Positions 1 through 10,195 of a stretch of 56,893 bases of DNA are shown here, piece by piece. Below the pieces are notes generated by a model, which ran no database searches, was not told the origin of the DNA, and was given only the letters and a program-made list of their open reading frames with translations. The DNA is from Planctomycetota bacterium (GTDB taxonomy: Bacteria > Planctomycetota > UBA8108 > UBA1146). Numbering within the stretch: position 1 is the first letter of the stretch; each line of letters begins with the position of its first letter. Both the position numbers and the translations under genes were made by a program. The stretch covers positions 1-56,893 of the forward strand of contig JAYZBV010000033.1 of NCBI GenBank assembly GCA_036338595.1, given 5' to 3'.

Positions 1-1222
1 CGCAGTCCTCGCACTCATCCGGAACGCCGTTGCCGTCACAGTCAGCCGAGGTGCCCGATGCGATATCAAAGGCATCATCGATGCCGTTGAGGTTGCAATC
101 GCAGAATCCCGGCTCGTTGCGGAAGATGCGGTCCTGCCACCCTTGCCAGTAGCCCACCACCAGGTCGAGGTCGTTGTCGGAGTCGATGTCTCCGAGGGCC
201 AGGGACGTGGTGTCCAGATTGCCACCGAGACTCTGTAAATTGTCGATGAAGGTGCCGTTGCCTCCGTTGAAGTAGACCAGATCCGGCTGCTGCCAGTTGC
301 CGACGACCAGGTCGAGATCGCTGTCGCCATCGAGATCGCCCAGTGCCAGTGCGGTGGTCGGCTCGTCACCGCCGATCTCCAGGATGGCACTGAAATTACC
401 GATGCCATCGTTCACGTAGGCGATGTTGGGAAAACCATTGTTGCCCTCCACCACATCGGGATCGCCATCGCCATCGATGTCGCCCACTACCAACTTCAGG
501 GATTCGTCGGGCCCCGAGCCGAAGGTCTGGCTGCTGGCGGTGAAGAGCCCATCACCGTCATTGAAGTAGACCTGGTTCGCCTCGAAGCGATTGACCACCA
601 CCAGGTCGAGATCGGTGTCGTTATCGACATCGATCAGCGCCATCGCCGCGCTCTCGCTGTTGCCCAGCTGCTGGCCGGGATCCTGGGTGAAGATGCCGCT
701 GCCGTCGTTTCGATAGACCAGATTCGGCTGCGACCCGTTGCCCTCGACGAAATCGAGATCTCCGTCGTCATCGATGTCGCCGACAGCGATCGATTCCGTC
801 TCCCACGTTCCGATCGCCTGGTTGGTATCGGTGAAGTTGCCGGTGAGGTCGTTGTCGTTGAGGAGGACACGGTTGGGCTGGCTGTTGAACTCGCCCATCA
901 CCAGGTCGAGGGCCCCGTCCATGTTAAAATCCGCCAGCACCAGGGCAGTGGTATCGCCGGTGCCCGGCGGACCGAGCGCCTGACCGCTGTCGGTGTAGAT
1001 GCCATTGCCATCGTTGAGATAGATGGAGTTGGGTTGACCGCTATTGCCCACCACCAGATCAAGATCACCATCCTGATCGACGTCACCGAGGGTGATCGTC
1101 CCGGTGTAGGAGAGCCCTGCAGTGCCGAGCAACTGACCGTCGTCATCCAGCCATCCGTTGCATTGCGCCAACAGCGCCTGCGGAACGATGAATACGGTGA
1201 GCAAGATCAGCAATCTCATCAT
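1..1222 (-). CDS. Secreted FG-GAP/VCBS-repeat (beta-propeller) protein followed by Cys/Asp repeats; 3' end runs off the window
   Basis: Not in the ORF track because it is open at the edge. Manual translation from ATG 1222 (AGGAGG RBS upstream): MMRLLILLTVFIVPQALLAQ signal peptide, repeated LGDVDQDGDLDLVVGNSGQPNSIYLNDG units, then DCNLNGIDDAFDIASGTSADCDGNGVPDEC. Confidence 0.85.
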   Translation of the reverse strand, partial: MMRLLILLTVFIVPQALLAQCNGWLDDDGQLLGTAGLSYTGTITLGDVDQDGDLDLVVGNSGQPNSIYLNDGNGIYTDSGQALGPPGTGDTTALVLADFNMDGALDLVMGEFNSQPNRVLLNDNDLTGNFTDTNQAIGTWETESIAVGDIDDDGDLDFVEGNGSQPNLVYRNDGSGIFTQDPGQQLGNSESAAMALIDVDNDTDLDLVVVNRFEANQVYFNDGDGLFTASSQTFGSGPDESLKLVVGDIDGDGDPDVVEGNNGFPNIAYVNDGIGNFSAILEIGGDEPTTALALGDLDGDSDLDLVVGNWQQPDLVYFNGGNGTFIDNLQSLGGNLDTTSLALGDIDSDNDLDLVVGYWQGWQDRIFRNEPGFCDCNLNGIDDAFDIASGTSADCDGNGVPDECEDC

Positions 1223-1294
1223 GAAGACACCTCCTGGAACACTCTGTCGATTATCCATCTGGAGGAGGGGGTTTGGTAGTGGTGAGAGCGTTAC

Positions 1295-1339
1295 AAAAGT
1301 AGGCTCCGGCGCGTTTGTACGCTCCGGAGCCTGCTTTTT
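1295..1339. terminator. Intrinsic terminator hairpin downstream of the traT-like gene
   Basis: AAAAGTAGGCTCCGG...CCGGAGCCTGCTTTT inverted repeat with A/T tracts on both sides. Confidence 0.7.
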
Positions 1340-1362
1340 AATGCTGCCGCGACCGTTACTCG

Positions 1363-2187
1363 TTACGGCAGGATCTCGGGGATGATTCTTTCGAGTCTTT
1401 CCTCGATGGCGGGCAGCGCATCCGCTTCGGTCAACTGAATCTGTCTTGCCGTGATCACCAGCGTGTTCTTGATGCGCACCTTGGTGCGTTCGGCGGCGTA
1501 GACCTGGTTGCGGCGGGTGCGGTTGCCCTCGGCGCCGGCGACGATGCCGGAGCCGCCGATGGCGGTGACGGAACCGGCGACGGAACCCTTCTTGGAGCGG
1601 TCATCGAGTTCGGTCTTGACGATGCCGCCGACCGCCTCGTCGATGCGCGTCTCGATGATCATCGTCCACGCCTCGCTGCGGCTCTTGCGGTCGATCATGT
1701 CGCCGACGGCGGATCCGATGAAGGCGCCGGCGATGGTGGCATTCTTACGGGTGCTGCGACTGTTGTTGCGCGCCTGGTTATTGCCGATGGCGCCGCCGGC
1801 GACGGTGCCGAGCAACTTGCCCATCGAGGAGGAATCGTCGGGCAGGTTCTCGTTACGGCCCCAGAACTTGATGACGGCGGTGATGTCGTAGAGCGCCTCG
1901 GCGGGGTCCTTGGTGACGGTCCAGCCTTCCTCCTCCATGCTGGCGACGAGCATGGCGCGCAGCTTGCGGGTGTTGAGATCGAGTCCGGAGGGGTTTCTGA
2001 CCTGGATGGTGACGCGGCGGTCGTCGCCGCCGGGGCGATCGCCGATGAACTCGGGCACGCCATCGACCCACTGCGCCTGGACATTCATCTCCTTGTAGCG
2101 CTCGCTACCGCCGGAGACGCTGACACAACTGACGGTGGAGAGGATCAGCAGGGAAACGAGAGAGAAACAGATCAACGATCGAAACAT
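1363..2187 (-). CDS. TraT-family (complement resistance) outer-membrane lipoprotein
   Basis: Lipobox-like STVSC; VTIQVRNPSG...GWTVTKDPAEA; central glycine zipper; WTMIIETRIDE; C-terminal ITARQIQLTEADALPAIEERL. These are collinear with TraT as I recall it. Confidence 0.7.
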   Translation of the reverse strand: MFRSLICFSLVSLLILSTVSCVSVSGGSERYKEMNVQAQWVDGVPEFIGDRPGGDDRRVTIQVRNPSGLDLNTRKLRAMLVASMEEEGWTVTKDPAEALYDITAVIKFWGRNENLPDDSSSMGKLLGTVAGGAIGNNQARNNSRSTRKNATIAGAFIGSAVGDMIDRKSRSEAWTMIIETRIDEAVGGIVKTELDDRSKKGSVAGSVTAIGGSGIVAGAEGNRTRRNQVYAAERTKVRIKNTLVITARQIQLTEADALPAIEERLERIIPEILP

Positions 2188-2309
2188 CGGGGACTCCTAG
2201 CTGCAGTATTCGGGCGGGCTCGATGGAAAACAGGCGTGACTCCGATGGGGAGCCACGCCTGATGATGTCTCATCGAAGCGGCACAGGCAAGGTGTGCCTG
2301 CCGTTGCGG

Positions 2310-3806
2310 CTAGTTGCGCGGCATCAGCGGACACGCCACCTGCGGACGCTTGCGGATGAAGACGAAGTCCTCGAGGGTCTGGTTCTTGTTGTGACAGACG
2401 AGGCAGGCGGTCTCCTTGACCGATGGCCACTGGTGGTTGACCGGATCGCGCGGGTGATCGGGGTTGAGACCGTGGCAGTTCTCGCACTGAACATTCTTGT
2501 ACGGTTCGGCATCTTCCGGCGCGATGAACGCCTGGCCGTAGCCGAGTACATGACAGGCGATGCAATCCTGGCGCCACTGATCGCCGGTCTCCACGAGACT
2601 GGCGAAGGCGGTCGCGTGCTTGGTCTTCTGCCAGAACTCGGTCTGCTCGACGTGACACACCGAGCAGGTGGTCGCGGTCAGGTACTTGTCCTTGTCGTGC
2701 AACGGCGGCAACTTCTCGATGTCGAGGAACTCGGCGTTGCGACGAAACGCCTCGACCATCTGGAGGATCTCGGGATCTTCCAGCAGGTGCGGCTCCATCG
2801 AGGCGCGCTCGTACCAGTAGGTCGATCGGCCGGCGGGGGGTGCCTCTTCGACCGACAGCGTCACCATCGGGCCACCGCCCTCGATCCAGTCGATGTCGAG
2901 GGTGCCGAGGCGTGCCCCCTGGCTATCGGTGCGCGCCAGCAACGTGTTGTTGATCGTCTCGAGGCTGTCCTCCTCATCGATCCAGATCTTGTGATTGCCC
3001 AGTTCGATCATCGGATCGAGCATCAGGTCGATGCCATCGACCTCGGCGGCGAGCTGACGGTTGGTGTCGAGGTGGTTGGCCGACAGCAGCACGACCATGT
3101 CGCACTGCTGGCGCAACTCGGGGACCAGCCGCTTGGCGGTCTCGATGGAGTTGAGCAGTGCCAGGGGACGCTCGGGATTGGCCCGCTCGAGGAAGTAGGA
3201 CGGGATGGTGTCGATGGTCAGACCGAGCACACCGATCTTGAGCCCTCCCGATTCGATGATGGCAGTGCCGGGAAACACCGGTTTCCGATCGTCGGCGTAG
3301 ACCAGGTTGGCGGAGAGCAATGGAAAGCTGGCCTGCTTCTGGAACTCCAGCAGGGCTGAGAGTCCCAGCGTCAGATCGTGGTGGCCGACCAGCATCGCCT
3401 CGTAACCCATGCGGTTGTAGGACTCGATGATCAGCTTCGCCTTCGACAGCAGTTGCTTCTTCTCGAAGTCCTTCTTCTTGCCATCGTCGGGACCGAACAG
3501 CGTGTTGCCACCGTCGATCAGCAGCAGGTTCTCGTGGTGATAGCGCGCCTGGCCGATGTAGGCGGCACGACGGGTGATGGAACCCTGACGCACCTTCTTG
3601 CGCTTGCAACCACACACATCGATGTAGCCGATGTTGTTGATGGAGAAGACCAGAAACAGGTTCTTGCTCGCATCTTGCAGCTGCTTCATGGGAGCCGGGG
3701 TGGAGCCGAGTTCGGCACTCGCCTGATGGCGGTTACCGACCAGCGCGGGATAGACCATCATCAACAAGATGGCCACGGTGATGATCTGAGGAGCCGATCG
3801 CTTCAT
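2310..3806 (-). CDS. UshA/5'-nucleotidase-like metallophosphoesterase domain fused to a tetraheme cytochrome c (c554-like) domain; cysteine paralog
   Basis: Signal peptide; NIGYIDVCGC...GSITRRA; LLIDGGN; VGHHD; FPLLSAN; four CxxCH motifs (CSVCH, CIACH, CENCH, CLVCH). Confidence 0.85.
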   Translation of the reverse strand: MKRSAPQIITVAILLMMVYPALVGNRHQASAELGSTPAPMKQLQDASKNLFLVFSINNIGYIDVCGCKRKKVRQGSITRRAAYIGQARYHHENLLLIDGGNTLFGPDDGKKKDFEKKQLLSKAKLIIESYNRMGYEAMLVGHHDLTLGLSALLEFQKQASFPLLSANLVYADDRKPVFPGTAIIESGGLKIGVLGLTIDTIPSYFLERANPERPLALLNSIETAKRLVPELRQQCDMVVLLSANHLDTNRQLAAEVDGIDLMLDPMIELGNHKIWIDEEDSLETINNTLLARTDSQGARLGTLDIDWIEGGGPMVTLSVEEAPPAGRSTYWYERASMEPHLLEDPEILQMVEAFRRNAEFLDIEKLPPLHDKDKYLTATTCSVCHVEQTEFWQKTKHATAFASLVETGDQWRQDCIACHVLGYGQAFIAPEDAEPYKNVQCENCHGLNPDHPRDPVNHQWPSVKETACLVCHNKNQTLEDFVFIRKRPQVACPLMPRN

Positions 3807-3812
3807 GAGAAG

Positions 3813-5282
3813 TTACTTTCCTTCGCGACGTTTCAGGAGTGGACAGGCGATCCGGGGCATCGCTTGCACCGGATCGAAGGGAACCTTGGTCTCGCTCGGA
3901 TTATGACACGACCAGCAGGGGGTGTCTTTCACTGCGGGCCACGGGAAGGCCTCGGGTTTGCTCGGGTGGCGTGGATTCAGGCCGTGACAGCTCTCGCACT
4001 GGACATCCTTCCAGCGTCCCGGCTCGTGGGCATCGACGAAGGTCTCGCCGTAACCGGTGACATGGCATGGCATGCAGTCGTAGCGGAACTGATCGCCGGA
4101 TGTTTCCAGCGTCGCATAGGCACGGCCGTGGGCGGTCTGTTTCCAGAACGCAGCCTGCTGCGGGTGACAGACGGTGCAGGTGACGGAGCCGAGGAAGTGT
4201 GTCGATGGCTCGAACTGCATCTCGTCGGCATCGATCGGGTTCTTGTAGCGGGTCGTGGCCATGAACTCCGCAACGATCTTTTCCATCGCCGGGTGTCTGC
4301 CGATGTGCGGTGCCAGTCCGACCGTCGAGAGATCCGCTATGTTGGAGCCGGCGGGGGCATCTTCATCCCAGATGCTGAACCACGGCTTCGCCTTGTCGCG
4401 AAACCACAGATCGGCGCGGGATAGTTCCGACCCCTGGCCACTCGGCTTCAGCAGCACCGTGCCGGAGTGCAGCGTCGTCTTGATCTTGTCGTTGATCCAG
4501 GTGTTCTCGGAGCCGTTGCTGGAGTTGGGTTCGACCACCACATCGACGCCGGTGACCTCGGTTGCGAGGCGGTCGACATCGGCACGGTCGATGTGGCCCA
4601 GCACGACACACAGATCGACCTCATCGATATGGGCCTCGATCTGCTCGAGGATGGCCGGGTAGGGGTCGGAAAAACTCGATCCGGCACAGTGCTTGTCGAT
4701 GAAGCGCTGCGGTGGCACGCGCATGGCGCCGACGATCAGCACCTTTCGTCCCTGGCTGGTGACGATGGTCGAGGCGGCGAAGGGGGACTCGCCACTGGCG
4801 TCCTTGAAGTTGGCGCACAGCACCGGAAACTTCATGCGCTTCTGGAACTCGACGAGGCGGTCGAGACCGAGTGCCAGATCGTGCTCGCCCAGGGCAACGG
4901 CCCGGGTGCCAAACAGGTTGTAGGCATCGATCAGCAGCAGCGCCTTCTGCAACATCTGTTGCTGCAGCAATGGATTTGGATGCAGTCGCCCGAGCGAGAA
5001 GAGCCAGTCGCCGCCATCGACGAGGAACGGTTCGATGCCCTCGGATTCCAGCGAGTTCAGGTAGGTCATCCGTCTCGACAGACTGCCGAGCTTGATCTTT
5101 CTCTTCGGTCAGCCACACGGTTCGATGTAGCCGTAGTTGTGAACCGTCGTCAGCAGCACGAACGGTTTTTCCTCGTCGTTGGCGGTGGCGGCGGCCGAGG
5201 CACGACCTTCGCCGTTTCCTGTCAGCGATGACAGGATCAGCGGTGCACACAGCAGCAGTAACAACGGGTACTTCAACTTCAC
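3813..5282 (-). CDS. Predicted selenoprotein: UshA-like metallophosphoesterase domain (CGU motif) plus tetraheme cytochrome c domain; UGA at 5109-5111 read as Sec
   Basis: ORFs 5109..5318 and 3813..5069 are in the same frame and separated only by one TGA: HNYGYIEPCG-TGA-PKRKIKLGSLSRRMTYL aligns with paralog NNIGYIDVCG-C-KRKKVRQGSITRRAAYI. GTG start at 5282 gives a signal peptide. Heme motifs CTVCH, CMPCH, CESCH, CWSCH. Confidence 0.85.
5074..5090 (-). promoter_or_regulatory. Bacterial SECIS-like hairpin
   Basis: Minus strand CUCGGCA-GUC-UGUCGAG (7 bp including one G-U) begins 18 nt 3' of the UGA. The apical GCAGUCUG resembles the E. coli fdhF SECIS apex GCAGGUCUGC. Confidence 0.65.
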
Positions 5283-5296
5283 TCCCTTTGCCCCCC

Positions 5297-5992
5297 TCAG
5301 GGGCACACATCCAGGCATGGCAGTGCACCTGCCGAACCACGGGGATACAAGAGTGTCGCTTCGAGTCCGGTGCCGGCGGCGAGTCGCGCCAGTGCCAGTA
5401 CCGAATCCTCGATGGTGACGGTTCCATCGTCATCGAGATCTCCGGCGGCGAGGCAGCGAGGTTCGGGACCGGATTCGCGCAGCCAGCTGATCAGTTCCTG
5501 GAAATCGGCCCAGTCGAGGCGGCCATTGGCATCGACATCGCCGCGGATCAGCGTCATCGAGGCGACGGCGGGGGTGTCGAGCTGCGGAACGGTGATGCTG
5601 GTCGGGATTCCCGACAGCAACACCCAGCCGACCAGCAATGCCGCAGCACTGCTCCACCAGCGGCCTGCAGGTGGCGACACGGGTGGCGAATCTTGCCCAT
5701 CGGCGAGGCGCCGGGCGGTGTCACTGCCACGGCTCGACTCGATGGCGATCTGGTGCCGGGTCGCGCGCGAAAGCGCTGCCACATCGGCGGAACTGACGCC
5801 GGTCAGAGCCTCGATCGTCATCAGCAACTCGTCGCGACAGCGGTCGTGAACTTCACGACAACCGGGGCACGAGGAGAGGTGCTGGGCGATGCGCGTTTCT
5901 TCGAGCGGACCCGACTCGCCGTCGAGAAATCTCGGAAGAACGCTTCGCACACCATCACAATTATCGAGTGGGATCATCGGGCGATCGCTCAT
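5297..5992 (-). CDS. Anti-sigma factor: zf-HC2 zinc finger, TM helix and C-terminal dockerin-like domain
   Basis: ATG 5992 overlaps the sigma-factor stop (ATGA). NCDGVR...LPRFLDGE...HLSSCPGC; TM WWSSAAALLVGWVLL; IRGDVDANGRLDWAD...CLAAGDLDDDGTVTIEDSV. Confidence 0.8.
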   Translation of the reverse strand: MSDRPMIPLDNCDGVRSVLPRFLDGESGPLEETRIAQHLSSCPGCREVHDRCRDELLMTIEALTGVSSADVAALSRATRHQIAIESSRGSDTARRLADGQDSPPVSPPAGRWWSSAAALLVGWVLLSGIPTSITVPQLDTPAVASMTLIRGDVDANGRLDWADFQELISWLRESGPEPRCLAAGDLDDDGTVTIEDSVLALARLAAGTGLEATLLYPRGSAGALPCLDVCP

Positions 5993-6546
5993 GCGCTGCC
6001 CCCCTTCGCTGATTCGGAGCGTTCCAGCTCCTTGCGTAACGCCGCACGTGCGCGGCGCATCAGGTAGTCCACCTGGTGGAAGGACATGCCAAGGCGATCC
6101 CCGATCTCGTCGTAGGAGCGCCCCTCGATGTACTTCCATTGCAGCGCCAGTCGCATCTCATCGGGAAGGCGTTGCACCAGTTCGTCGGTCTCGATCGAAC
6201 TCGATTCCTTCGAACGGTGCTGGGCCCGGGCCAGCAACTCGGTGCGCGCTTGTTGCAGCACGACCCGCTTGCGTTGTTTCTGCTGGATCCAGCGATGGGC
6301 CCTGTTCTGGACCAATCGTGAAAGCCAACCGATGAAGGCGCGTGGCTCCCTGAGCGAGGGCAAGGAGCGCCAGATGTGAAAGAGGGCATCCTGGGCGACA
6401 TCGTCCGCGTCCTCACGACCGACCTTGCGTCGGGCCAGACCCAGCACCAATCCTCCGAAGCGATCGATCAGGACGCCGAACGCGGCCTCATCGCCGCTGG
6501 CGGCGAGTTGCACGAGTTCGACATCTTCGAGATCCTCGGGAGCCAT
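5989..6546 (-). CDS. ECF RNA polymerase sigma-70 factor
   Basis: AAGGAG RBS; DVELVQLAASGDEAAFGVL; DADDVAQDA; FIGWLSRL; region 4 LPDEMRLALQWKYIEGRSYDEIGDRLG. Confidence 0.9.
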   Translation of the reverse strand: MAPEDLEDVELVQLAASGDEAAFGVLIDRFGGLVLGLARRKVGREDADDVAQDALFHIWRSLPSLREPRAFIGWLSRLVQNRAHRWIQQKQRKRVVLQQARTELLARAQHRSKESSSIETDELVQRLPDEMRLALQWKYIEGRSYDEIGDRLGMSFHQVDYLMRRARAALRKELERSESAKGGSA

Positions 6547-6790
6547 CGATGCTCGCTCCTTCGGCTGCTCGGGTCGGTCACCTGGAGGGGGGCACATGCG
6601 GGATCTCCGGGTCGGGAGGGGTGCAGTGAGAGGATCAGGAATCCTCTCTCGCGGACGGGGCGCCGGGCCCTGAAATCGGGCCAGGATCACCTTCCTGAGC
6701 AGTATAACATGAGCCGGGACCACCCCGGATCAGAGCCTCGCTGCTGACTGGAAGTACCGCAGTGCAGGGGCGATTCGGAAGCCATTTGCC

Positions 6791-7828
6791 TCAAATGGAG
6801 CGGATGGCTCGAAAGCCCTCCAGAGCCTGTTGAAGGCCAGTATCGTCGATTTGACGGTGGAACACGGCGCGCAGGCCGCGATCTCCGACCGCCAGCACCC
6901 GCACCCCCCGGGCATCGAGATCGGCCTCGAGTTGCTGATGACCGGCGACATCCAGATCGTCAAAACGGACGAACAGGATATTTGACTGTGGCGGGTTCGG
7001 TTCGAGGCGGGCACCCGGTAGATCGGCGAGCCCCTCGGCGAGTTGCTGACAGCGGCGGTGGTCATCGGCGAGTCGCTCGATGCCATCGGTGAGTGCGACC
7101 AGTCCCGCTGCGGCGATGACGCCGACCTGGCGCATGCCACCGCCGAGCAGTTTTCTCAAGCGCCTCGCCTCGGCGATGTGATCGGTGGAGCCACACAGCA
7201 GCGAACCGATGGGGCAGGAGAGTCCCTTCGAGAGACAGAAGGAGACGGTGTCGAAGGGAGCGGCCAGCTCGGCAGCGGCGATGCCGAGGGCGACCTCGGC
7301 GTGAAACAGTCTCGCACCATCGAGATGCATCTTGAAATCGTGCTCGGCGGCGACGGCGGCGATACCGGCGATCTGTTCGGTACCGATCACGCGCCCGCCA
7401 CACATGTTGTGGGTGTTCTCGAGACAGATCAGCGATGTGCGCGGCTGGTGGTCATCGTCGGGTCGGATGCTGCTACGGACCGATGCCGCATCGAGGCAAC
7501 CGTCGACCGATGGCAACGGATGCGGATGGACTCCCCACAGTCGTGCCGAACCGCCCGCCTCGTACAGGTAGATGTGGCTATCTTCCATCAGGATCATCTC
7601 GTCGCCAGGATTCGTCAGCGTGCCGATGGCGATGGTGTTGGCCATCGTGCCGGTCGGAACAAACAGCGCCGCTTCCTTGCCGAGGCGGGCAGCACTCTCC
7701 TGCTCGAGCCTGATGACGGTCGGATCGTCACCGAAAACGTCGTCGCCCAGCGGTGCAGCCACCATCTGGCGGTACATCTGCTCGGTCGGGTGGGTGACGG
7801 TGTCCGATCTGAGGTCGACCCGGTCCAT
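6791..7828 (-). CDS. ltaE: Low-specificity L-threonine aldolase (PLP)
   Basis: DLRSDTVT, GDDVFGDDPT, PTGTMAN, LENTHN, HLDGARL, FCLSKGL, GGGMRQ. Confidence 0.92.
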   Translation of the reverse strand: MDRVDLRSDTVTHPTEQMYRQMVAAPLGDDVFGDDPTVIRLEQESAARLGKEAALFVPTGTMANTIAIGTLTNPGDEMILMEDSHIYLYEAGGSARLWGVHPHPLPSVDGCLDAASVRSSIRPDDDHQPRTSLICLENTHNMCGGRVIGTEQIAGIAAVAAEHDFKMHLDGARLFHAEVALGIAAAELAAPFDTVSFCLSKGLSCPIGSLLCGSTDHIAEARRLRKLLGGGMRQVGVIAAAGLVALTDGIERLADDHRRCQQLAEGLADLPGARLEPNPPQSNILFVRFDDLDVAGHQQLEADLDARGVRVLAVGDRGLRAVFHRQIDDTGLQQALEGFRAIRSI

Positions 7829-7984
7829 GGTTCCTCCTGGTAGCGGTCAATGACGAGGCGATGACACCACGAAACGGCTCCGACAGGAAGTGTTCCCGGG
7901 ACTCACCTCGGCGTGGGGTTGTACCGGAGCCGTCGGCAGTGGACTCTTGGGGCGGGTACCAGGGGACCAGCCGGGAGGCGTGCG

Positions 7985-8353
7985 ATGGAACTCGATGACA
8001 GGGTTTGCTACTGCTTTCGCGTGACCCGCAGGAAATTGCTCAACTTCACGCGCCAGACGCAGCCGAGCCGTCCTTCGCAACTGTCGGAGTGTTTCGGGGC
8101 AGGTACCGGCTGTGGCTGGTGTATCCCCTTCCTGATGAGAATCCACGCCGAGGTGATGGATTCGGATGAGCGCGCCGATGGTCCCGATCCGCTCGAGATC
8201 AGTGCCGAGGAGTACGAGCAACTGCGCGCCACCTACCGCGAGCAGGTCACTGCTGGCGAGCGCCAGAAGAATCACCACGGGGCTGGTTCTGGCGATCAGG
8301 AAACGGGGGGTGGCGATGCAGCGGGGGAGATCGATGACGATGCGTTTGCCTAG
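7985..8353 (+). CDS. BFD-like [2Fe-2S]-binding protein
   Basis: DDRVCYCFRV...SECFGAGTGCGWCIPFL; GGGAGG RBS before ATG 7985. Confidence 0.8.
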   Translation: MELDDRVCYCFRVTRRKLLNFTRQTQPSRPSQLSECFGAGTGCGWCIPFLMRIHAEVMDSDERADGPDPLEISAEEYEQLRATYREQVTAGERQKNHHGAGSGDQETGGGDAAGEIDDDAFA

Positions 8354-8360
8354 CGGTCGA

Positions 8361-8615
8361 TCAATCCTCGGCGATGGCGCTCAACTTGCGGTCGATGGCA
8401 TCGATCTGGATGCGGAGCTCGACGATGCGCTTGGGATAGCGACTGAGGGTGGTGGTGCGATCGGTCTCGTCAGACCCCATGCCGATATTGAGTTTCTTTT
8501 CGAGCAGTTCCAGCTCGGTGACGAGGCCTTCTCGCTCTGATTCCAGGTCCGCGCGCTTTCGAGACAGTTCCTGGCGCTTCTGCTGCTTTTTCTTGCCGAA
8601 AAATCCGAAGATCAA
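8361..8615 (-). CDS. Small hypothetical coiled-coil protein
   Basis: 84-aa helical ORF filling an intergenic gap; GAGGGAGG upstream of a TTG start. Confidence 0.55.
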   Translation of the reverse strand: MIFGFFGKKKQQKRQELSRKRADLESEREGLVTELELLEKKLNIGMGSDETDRTTTLSRYPKRIVELRIQIDAIDRKLSAIAED

Positions 8616-8697
8616 GGAGTGCCTCCCTCTTCGAAGAAACTAACCATTTGTCTGCGATCTGGAAAGCCCCCACGCCATCTGCCGCAGGATGAGCTCC

Positions 8698-9849
8698 TCA
8701 GCGGGCTCTGCGCGCCTGGTCCGATCGGTTCAGTCTATCGACCAATCTGGCGAGGATCGACTGCAGGTGCTTGCCGGGACAGCCTGTATCTCGCAGATCC
8801 TTGTGGCCATAGATGCGCGAGGGGCGAATCTCGTGCACGGCAGCGAGTGTCCCCAGCAATGAGCCGAGACTCTCCACTTGCGACGAGGTGGGGCGATCTC
8901 GATCAAAATTGCCGATCAGTGCGATGCCGATATTGCCGCGATTGAGCGTGTTGTTGCCGGCGTGTGCGCCCTGGTACTGGATCGATCGGCCCTCCCAGAT
9001 GCGGCCGTCGGCACTGATCAGGTAGTGATAGCCGATGTCGCCCCACTGGAGACTGCCGGTGCAGTAGTCCTGGATGCGGCGCAGGTACTGTTCGGGATCG
9101 CTGACGCCCAGCGATGCGATGGCGGGCTGGTCGGCGGTGTGATGGACGGTGATGCGACTCGGTCGTGTCATCGCAACGATGCGGCGAGTTCGGGGTGGTC
9201 GGGCTTGCCAACTGCTTCGCTTGTGGAGCTGGATTCGCTGCGGAGTTTTCGGCACCGTCACCCGGGGCACCCCCGTCGGCGGTCTCGCGACGACGGTCGG
9301 GCCGGGAGTGACATCGCGCACCCAGATCGATGTGTATTCAGGGAAGCTGCCGTTGCCAGCTGCATTTCGATAGAGCGCAGGCACTGCTTCTCCCAGCTGA
9401 TCGAGTGTGCGTGTGATGAGGTAAGCAGCACGACGGCGCTCTTCGGCTTCGAGGAGAGCCGGGTAGGCTTTCTCGAGTTGATTGAGTCCACTGTTGGTCG
9501 AGCCCGATCTCAGCAGTGCTTCTCCCAGGTAGAGATGAGCGCGAGCCAGATGGGCTCCCGGTCCGAGCAGTCTTCTGGCCATTTCGAGGTGGCGGATCGC
9601 GGCCTCGATCTGACCACTGGCGAGGGCGCAGCGACCGAGCCCGGTGCGAGCGATGCCCCGAACGCTGGCGGCTTTTTCTGGACTCTCCCAGGAGGCAAAG
9701 ATGCTTCGCGCCCGCTCGATGTCACCCGCTTCGAGAGCGCTTTGAGCCTGGACCAGTGCAGCGGGCATGACGGATGTGGTGCGAGGGGGTGGCGTTTGGC
9801 CACAACCACTGATGATCAGCACCGAGATGAGTAGCGAGAATCGCCTCAT
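8698..9849 (-). CDS. TPR-containing lipoprotein with a PGRP/Amidase_2 N-acetylmuramoyl-L-alanine amidase domain
   Basis: Lipobox IISGC; TPR-like helices; ITVHHTA, WGDIGYHYLI, GRIWEGR, GAHAG, GHKD, TGCPG. Start could be 9849 or 9861. Confidence 0.85.
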   Translation of the reverse strand: MRRFSLLISVLIISGCGQTPPPRTTSVMPAALVQAQSALEAGDIERARSIFASWESPEKAASVRGIARTGLGRCALASGQIEAAIRHLEMARRLLGPGAHLARAHLYLGEALLRSGSTNSGLNQLEKAYPALLEAEERRRAAYLITRTLDQLGEAVPALYRNAAGNGSFPEYTSIWVRDVTPGPTVVARPPTGVPRVTVPKTPQRIQLHKRSSWQARPPRTRRIVAMTRPSRITVHHTADQPAIASLGVSDPEQYLRRIQDYCTGSLQWGDIGYHYLISADGRIWEGRSIQYQGAHAGNNTLNRGNIGIALIGNFDRDRPTSSQVESLGSLLGTLAAVHEIRPSRIYGHKDLRDTGCPGKHLQSILARLVDRLNRSDQARRAR

Positions 9850-10195
9850 CACTGGCCGCATCGCTGCCGAAAGCAGCGGATGGGCCCCCATCCCCGTCAT
9901 TGTTGGCTCGCACTCTGGCAACGCCGCACCGGTCTTCCCCCGCGGGAAGATGCCCGCAGGCGCAGCATACCGGAACTGCACTCAGGAACCAAACATCTAG
10001 GGCTGGACTTGATGTAAGGGTTTTGTTAGGGTTGGCCGCCAGCGATCCTCGCGCCAGCTTGCGACCGGGAAAGGGGGGGGCATCGATCCGCTTCCTGCCA
10101 CCTCATCCGCCGACCGAGATCGACCCGTCGATGGCGCCGCTGCCTCGGGTTCAAAGCAGCGGGCGAACCTCGAAACGACAACCCGCAGCGCCACG

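Follow-up and report, generated by a model that had tools for sequence, protein, structure and literature searches.

An in-frame UGA codon in a tetraheme cytochrome c gene of an uncultured planctomycete is almost certainly read as selenocysteine. The gene lies on the reverse strand at positions 3813..5282 of the window, a contig of 56,893 nt (C33) from a Planctomycetota bin of 2.9 Mb (88% complete, 7% contaminated); metagenome runs containing this DNA come from seawater, seeps and vents. The product of 489 amino acids, with selenocysteine (Sec) at residue 58, combines a nucleotidase-like domain carrying a Cys-Gly-Sec motif with a c554-like tetraheme domain. Together with a downstream paralog that has cysteine at this position and an upstream ECF sigma and anti-sigma pair it forms a candidate operon, and it may function as a heme-coupled redox enzyme.

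The gene had been split by gene calling. As claimed in the original prediction, an open reading frame of 69 codons (5318-5109, reverse strand) ending with EPCG-TGA enters, in the same frame and with no stop between, a frame of 418 codons (5069-3813). Translation from GTG at 5282 (TTG at 5276 is also a possible start) to the TAA stop with TGA read as U yields 489 residues with a single recoded codon, U58. The motif Cys56-Gly57-Sec58 occupies 5109..5117, with the TGA at 5111-5109. In the BLASTP alignment with the adjacent paralog (3806-2310), U58 faces the second cysteine of the CGC motif, and the similarity extends to both sides of the TGA (32% identity, 498 columns, E 5e-94), both as predicted. 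The best 11-residue hydropathy value within the first 45 residues is 3.07 in the read-through product and 0.81 in the 418-residue frame. Thus the signal-like N-terminus (residues 1 to approximately 30, 5193..5282, with a putative cleavage site) is indeed confined to the read-through product.

We compared 60 genomic regions around the Sec and Cys genes at the DNA level. Codon 58 is TGA in 48 of 48 orthologous Sec copies (31/31 and 17/17, the set of 31 including the window gene and a second copy from the same bin). In the lineage of the Cys paralog it is TGC or TGT in all copies (32 and 19). The expected alternation of TGA and TGC among orthologs was thus not observed; the Sec and the Cys form instead represent separate paralogous lineages, both old. 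Of 59 class genomes, 56 contain proteins of this Sec/Cys type. One locus (L085), 98% identical to the Sec gene, comes from a record titled Bacillota, whereas all its other close relatives with a named record are titled Planctomycetota, and is probably mislabelled. The second, truncated Sec copy of the bin (L010, C93:3053-3532) has its own ECF and anti-sigma genes and shares 97% identity with its counterpart in G022, which belongs to another genus. It is likely to be contamination of the bin rather than a duplicate.

Other readings of the codon, namely a true stop that splits the gene or marks a pseudogene, an error in the sequence, or a genome-wide reassignment of TGA, are taken together extremely improbable. 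All 25 database records examined from the Sec-copy lineage are cut near the TGA and start after it (41-87% coverage), as would be the case at a true stop. However, this is the expected behaviour of gene callers at a selenocysteine codon, and a true stop is hard to reconcile with TGA in every ortholog across the class and with conservation of the protein on both sides. The sequence of the codon could be checked in contigs, rather than raw reads, from four public runs. Nearby third positions vary among these contigs, some of which represent strains about 87% alike, and no variant at 5109-5111 was among those listed, which argues against an error. A reassignment is contradicted by the use of TGA as the stop codon of the anti-sigma gene and of many Cys paralogs, at conserved ends.

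A SECIS-type hairpin, CTCGGCA-GTC-TGTCGAG, is present where it had been proposed, 18 nt past the TGA (5090-5074, reverse strand), and its loop contains or adjoins an AGU. Bacterial SECIS hairpins are positioned just 3' of the UGA. When the 75-nt region was folded as a single sequence, the result did not exceed chance (z 0.17) and the best structure differed from the proposed hairpin, which could again be cited in favour of a true stop; the support for the hairpin thus comes from conservation. In an alignment of 25 of the 31 Sec copies, pairing in the six-pair stem reaches 88.7%, as opposed to 30-59% in slid controls. There are 11 compensatory double changes in the stem, all at one pair, and 0 of 500 shuffles were as high; the aligned rows are kin and not independent, so these counts are support rather than a probability. 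The serine codon in the loop is AGT in 48/48 Sec copies as compared to 6/51 Cys copies, the share of AGT among serine codons of long open reading frames being 13%. An Rfam search of positions 1000-9000 produced a single chance match (E 0.25).

The genome also contains the selenocysteine machinery that recoding would need. tRNA-Sec, selA, selB and selD were all found, the sel genes scoring over their cut-offs, and selA occurs in 57 of the 59 class genomes. The gene therefore shows the features by which bacterial selenoproteins are recognised: an in-frame UGA facing cysteine in homologs, a 3' hairpin with G early in the loop, and selA-selD in the genome. The selD gene has an in-frame TGA of its own (GU motif, with its own hairpin); it is clustered on one strand with selA and tRNA-Sec (C72:32141-34795), and selB is located on C108. 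A genome-wide scan for UGA read-through yielded 296 candidates of 25,567, too noisy for a genome SECIS consensus. Further likely selenoprotein candidates among those listed are C34:49260 (-), C21:281 (-), C28:3132 (+), C77:15103 (+), C73:77268 (+), C55:5377 (-), C54:28815 (+), C105:2015 (+) and C10:2593 (+). The motifs around these candidate codons are PWUGWC (two copies), APUGPC (similar to APWUGPC), YSUGIC, GGGUFWG, NGUTSC, TTUCIC, GTUGC and PGUT. We take PWUGWC, APUGPC and YSUGIC to be UxxC sites of the thioredoxin or peroxiredoxin type, GGGUFWG to be MsrA-like and NGUTSC to be ArsC-like.

The best NCBIfam match of the protein is NF041198, UshA-like (seleno)protein UshA_like_PCGU (E 2e-69). 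With U read as C, the Sec copy scores 234.3 bits, which is under the cut-off of 275, whereas the Cys paralog (314.3) and the Sec ortholog of genome G039 (277.1) score over it. The model (519 positions) is matched at 14-269 and 393-511, that is, in the phosphoesterase and tetraheme parts, and EPCGU of the Sec copy corresponds to the PCG[U/C] that NF041198 specifies after phosphoesterase motif I. The mention of UshA-like CxU proteins in the original prediction fits this result; the combination of domains does not count as new, since NF041198 already covers both. Compared to the rest of the family, the lineage of the Sec copy has N/H in place of the motif-I acidic residue, GS in place of GG, DP/EP in the last motif, and a fixed terminal cysteine, and it is accompanied by the Cys paralog and the ECF pair.

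The family was listed as "COG0737 UshA-like, CxU" in the 2008 GOS selenoproteome, with 76 sequences (PMC2398784), and NF041198 was relisted in the table of a 2026 review (PMC13188914). In the accessible parts of both papers UshA-like CxU is a table row only, with no mention of hemes, mechanism or gene context. A term search of the main text of BSepDB (PMC13326102) did not find this family named. No paper on hemes, ligands, operon or activity of UshA-like CxU proteins was found in a literature search that covered mainly openly accessible papers, and nothing usable was found on c554 ligand numbering or KsTH. Thus the family is already known as a selenoprotein; the operon, the loss of metal ligands with an invariant CG[U/C], and the His/Cys ligand pattern were not found in print.

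The profile of the Cys paralog matches 1,753 clusters (50% identity, E < 1e-30) from many phyla, partial and single-domain matches included, and homologs with the same two-domain architecture occur in many other phyla. Twenty-six of 137 cluster representatives (P0238-P0357) start with xGGL just past CG[U/C], as UGA-split Sec forms would, and 19 of these 26 end in cysteine. A separate Sec paralog with the motif LEPCGU and a terminal histidine was observed in G031, G033 and G037 (L069, L072, L079). Its long N-terminal extension resembles fibronectin type III repeats, and the hairpin past its UGA is different and longer.

The N-terminal part (residues approximately 39-345, 4248..5168, reverse strand) has a fold of the 5'-nucleotidase/SoxB type. 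In the AlphaFold model of both domains (103 rows, pLDDT 93.7, pTM 0.91), residues 39-345 superimpose on the 5'-nucleotidase 2Z1A with Z 30.9 and rmsd 2.6 over 277 aligned residues, and the domain matches SoxB 2WDC with Z 27.7. The protein shares with UshA/CD73 and SoxB the N-terminal calcineurin-like fold and the linker helix (Z 27-31). It differs from them in the loss of most dimetal ligands and of the substrate-binding C-terminal domain, and in the addition of CG[U/C] and four hemes; the structural matches stop at model residue 311-315, where the c554-like domain follows. In 5'-nucleotidase/SoxB hydrolases two metals are bound by the residues DxH / GD / GNH / H / GHxH. The complete set is absent from the Sec copy. 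The motifs HTNDTH, GNHE and GGHS of the Thermus nucleotidase are replaced by TVHNYG, GEHD and EPNS, and five of seven aligned metal ligands are substituted, with D89, D92, H134 and H230 kept in the window copy. The metallophosphoesterase fold is thus degenerate, as had been suggested.

Given the fold similarity with Z of about 30 and the residues D89, D92, H134 and H230, one could regard the protein as a surviving phosphoesterase of the 5'-nucleotidase kind, in which CGU acts as a redox switch and the hemes form an accessory domain. However, most of the aligned metal ligands are gone, the nucleoside-binding C-terminal domain is swapped for the heme domain, and the protein reaches just 15-28 bits on the UshA, SoxB and NadN models, whose cut-offs are 436-1646, so we consider a surviving phosphoesterase very improbable.

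The pattern of conservation in this domain is centred on the new motif. C56, G57 and U/C58 are invariant in 64/64 rows. Across 30 copies of the Sec and 29 of the Cys lineage they are fixed together with G66, S67, R70 and R71, whereas the metal-motif positions vary. This points to selection on CG[U/C] and not on the old metal site. On the other hand, part of the site is retained in the Sec lineage (D92 in 27/30 copies, H230 in 29/30, E133 in 22/30, H134 in 19/30, H48 in 19/30), which gives a metal site some residual probability. One possibility is that Cys56 and Sec58 ligate a rebuilt metal site together with H48, D92, E133/H134 and H230, making the protein a metal-dependent hydrolase or a metal-binding or metal-reducing protein served by the hemes. 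CGU directly follows metal motif I, and the five residues are kept more in the Sec than in the Cys lineage. However, the deep-branching Sec copies of G036, G038 and G039 have N, P and Q/S/A at positions 48, 133 and 134, and D92 is absent from 29/29 Cys-lineage copies, and yet CG[U/C] is kept in all these proteins. A rebuilt metal site is thus unlikely, if less so than the surviving phosphoesterase.

The C-terminal part (3816..4205, reverse strand) is a c554-like tetraheme domain with CxxCH motifs at 4178-4164, 4076-4062, 3998-3984 and 3917-3903. The four hemes proposed originally agree with these motifs, with a match to PF13435 over the cut-off and with the fold: residues 360-489 superimpose on cytochrome c554 (1BVB) with Z 11.6 and rmsd 3.2 over 129 residues, and the heme-domain profile matches c554 and OcwA with E 1.6e-16 and 1.6e-21. 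The fold, the spacing of motifs and the ratio of three distal ligands to four hemes are shared with c554 (1BVB) and hemes 1-4 of OcwA (6I5B). Unlike these proteins, the domain is fused to a 310-residue domain of catalytic type, has shorter loops and a cysteine at the last ligand position, and scores 28 bits on NF043010 (cut-off 400). An AlphaFold model of the heme domain alone, made without an alignment, was unusable (pLDDT 33). The bin contains 37 open frames with at least two CxxCH motifs, several with 4-10, which is many for a small genome.

The only conserved histidines and cysteines outside the four CxxCH motifs are the invariant His385 (4130-4128) and His439 (3968-3966) and Cys480 (3843..3845), the predicted distal ligand of the last heme. 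Seven ligands would thus be available for eight axial sites, so that one heme is predicted to be open. The alignment therefore predicts one His/Cys heme and one open heme in this domain. The match of C480 to the last heme ligand of c554 is tentative, as it draws on the end of a structural range, on a non-significant HMM segment that is two residues off, and on the numbering of the c554 ligands. The heme left open at the active site of both c554 and OcwA is heme 2 (PMC6703420, as far as this source was available).

Position 480 is cysteine in the class copies of both paralogs (59/59 and 36/36) and histidine in 5/5 unlinked paralogs of the class and in 19/19 homologs from other Planctomycetota (1 of 20 regions lacked the four-motif frame). 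Among the best 150 cluster representatives it is cysteine in 87 and histidine in 50, with eight not parsed and five having fewer than two hemes; the query was the Cys paralog, which favours cysteine, and 145 representatives bear hemes. On a FastTree tree of 137 rows there are about 17 switches between histidine and cysteine, as compared to 42 in shuffles (minimum 32); 13 of the 150 had been dropped as lacking four motifs plus the ligand, and a few labels are mis-parsed (e.g. P0231, P0267). A column restricted to histidine or cysteine would fit an axial heme ligand; binding to iron is a prediction, and a disulfide is the alternative. In a sample of 401 genomes of the phylum, with three candidates scored per genome, strong matches to the paralog profile were found in 22/23 genomes of the class and, outside it, in G065 only, whose protein is His-terminal. 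A tree of 200 rows with 96 terminal-Cys proteins on one branch had suggested that the terminal cysteine is an invention of this class. This was rejected as a sampling effect, as terminal cysteines are common family-wide.

Four genes of the reverse strand are arranged in tandem: the ECF sigma factor (5989..6546), the anti-sigma factor (5297..5992), the Sec gene and the Cys paralog (2310..3806). The sigma factor gene overlaps the start of the anti-sigma gene by 4 nt, and the next gaps are 14 and 6 nt. The paralog has 498 amino acids with CGC, four CxxCH motifs and the terminal Cys492 (2333-2331). Directly 3' of it there is a terminator-like hairpin of 13 pairs with a T tail (2231..2261); the number of such hairpins does not exceed the chance expectation (3 against 3.4), and position is the sole support for this one. 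Upstream of the sigma factor gene there is an extended -10-like element, TGTTATACT (6701..6709), a candidate promoter element by its match to the consensus, which is kept in 11/18 upstream regions of the window's family. The gaps and the terminator-like hairpin suggest a four-gene operon.

The Sec copy is followed by the Cys copy in 26/37 loci of the first set and 16/20 of the second, with several others cut by contig ends, and the ECF sigma and zinc-finger anti-sigma genes are present directly upstream in loci of 24/33 and 22/33 genomes, respectively. These data suggest that the four-gene operon extends across this class of Planctomycetota. The pairing of Sec and Cys genes is not obligatory, as in G025 (93% complete) and G028, both with selA, only the Cys copy follows the sigma pair, and in family f4 the Sec gene, the Cys gene and the sigma pair are not linked to one another. 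In G235 and G236, selA is present and only the Cys paralog was found. Contigs from RNA libraries of four runs contain parts of all four genes, and one spans the junction of the Sec and Cys genes; the shares are small (0.09-0.17) and much is uncovered, and we do not conclude from these contigs that the genes are transcribed.

The anti-sigma factor has a zinc finger (zf-HC2, HxxxCxxC) and a Cys-bearing C-terminal dockerin-like domain, a sensor design that is unusual and retained throughout the order. Three or four cysteines are retained in this outer domain (23 copies). Together with the frequent linkage to the sigma pair, they would be consistent with a periplasmic redox sensor or relay, in which the heme state is passed via CGU to the cysteines of the dockerin-like domain. 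However, genes located behind an ECF sigma/anti-sigma pair are usually targets of that sigma, the linkage does not extend to family f4, and the same architecture is present in homologs from many other phyla. A sensor is therefore distinctly less probable than a rebuilt metal site.

No sulfur-chemistry genes were observed among the conserved neighbours in the loci of 33 genomes. A TraT-like glycine-zipper lipoprotein (1363-2187) is encoded past the terminator in 7/33 loci. Conserved genes upstream encode a low-specificity threonine aldolase (6791-7828, 23/33 loci), a small Cys-rich protein on the opposite strand (7913-8353, 14/33 loci), presumably a BFD-type 2Fe-2S protein, and a TPR-amidase lipoprotein (8698-9981, 14/33 loci).

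A heme-coupled Cys-Sec redox enzyme, likely exported, is the function that we favour for this protein, with about equal chances of being right or wrong. Selenocysteine would be inserted at U58 in a SelB-dependent manner. The signal-like N-terminus and the CxxCH motifs support the exported four-heme product proposed originally, export itself being predicted, and hemes could be attached by a CcsA-type system, a gene of which is present in the genome. The nucleotidase-like scaffold, having lost most metal ligands, would carry the Cys-Gly-Sec centre, in which C56 and U58 may cycle between the reduced and selenenylsulfide states. The basic loop PKRKIK beside CGU could draw in an anionic sulfur-sulfur substrate, and Sec could attack a substrate of polysulfide, persulfide or thiosulfate type; the hemes would pass electrons to or from the Cys-Sec centre, with re-reduction via the heme chain. 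A sulfur-sulfur substrate in particular is a tentative suggestion by analogy, less probable than the redox function as such. The upstream ECF pair would control the operon, and the putatively co-transcribed Cys paralog may act as an isoenzyme independent of selenium or as a further subunit. Counting against the heme-coupled reading are the two genomes with the Cys copy alone and the lack of a sulfur-linked conserved neighbour. Many members have cysteine at the Sec site and histidine at the terminal site, so the family can do without Sec and without a His/Cys heme. A coupling analysis of CGU versus hemes (200 rows, Neff 163) gave only noise, and a complex prediction in which both domains of the paralog were combined with four hemes had scores of 0.11, 0.63 and 0.18 and gave no contacts.

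The closest mechanistic parallel is MccSep (ExtKL, NF040886; PDB 9WT8), the one enzyme with both Sec and heme that is known to have been characterised; His/Cys hemes also occur in the sulfur enzymes TsdA and SoxA. It is a Sec-containing pentaheme polysulfide reductase of Geobacter sulfurreducens, with a His/Cys heme and with Sec 3.6 angstrom from the heme-bound cysteine, according to the part of the preprint available (bioRxiv 2025.11.18.688581). Both proteins are periplasmic multiheme cytochromes c (by predicted export in our case) whose annotation was split at the UGA. The combination of Sec with a Cys-ligated heme was demonstrated for MccSep and is predicted for the UshA-like Sec copy. However, MccSep has five hemes and an Ig-like domain, as opposed to four hemes and a nucleotidase fold, and its Sec is late and single rather than early and within a CxU motif. 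The only similarity is a weak heme stretch of 80 residues (E 6e-4 to 0.03), and NF040886 is not among the NCBIfam matches up to E 0.1. A mapping of heme 2 of MccSep onto heme 2 of the tetraheme domain was dropped, as this weak alignment gives it no support. MccSep is thus an analogy that can guide thinking about the mechanism, and not a relative.

In a broader and rather speculative interpretation, which we rate slightly below the sulfur-sulfur substrate, the family would not be nucleotidases at all but a second class of heme-fed selenoenzymes, which arose independently and is very widespread. A dead dimetal-hydrolase fold would hold Cys-Gly-Sec against the open heme of the c554-type domain, the last heme switching between His/His and His/Cys. 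In this marine class of Planctomycetota, the Sec and Cys paralogs under one ECF sigma would be the functional unit, with sulfur or selenium redox chemistry in the periplasm as its task.

The recoding corrects an annotation error common to all the database records examined from this lineage. As the family is already on selenoprotein lists, it is the function that would matter. The natural variants, with Sec or Cys at position 58 and His or Cys at position 480, provide built-in controls. If the protein is MccSep-like, then catalysis by Sec plus heme evolved twice, and an uncultured marine lineage with these proteins in 56/59 genomes has an unrecognised periplasmic redox pathway.
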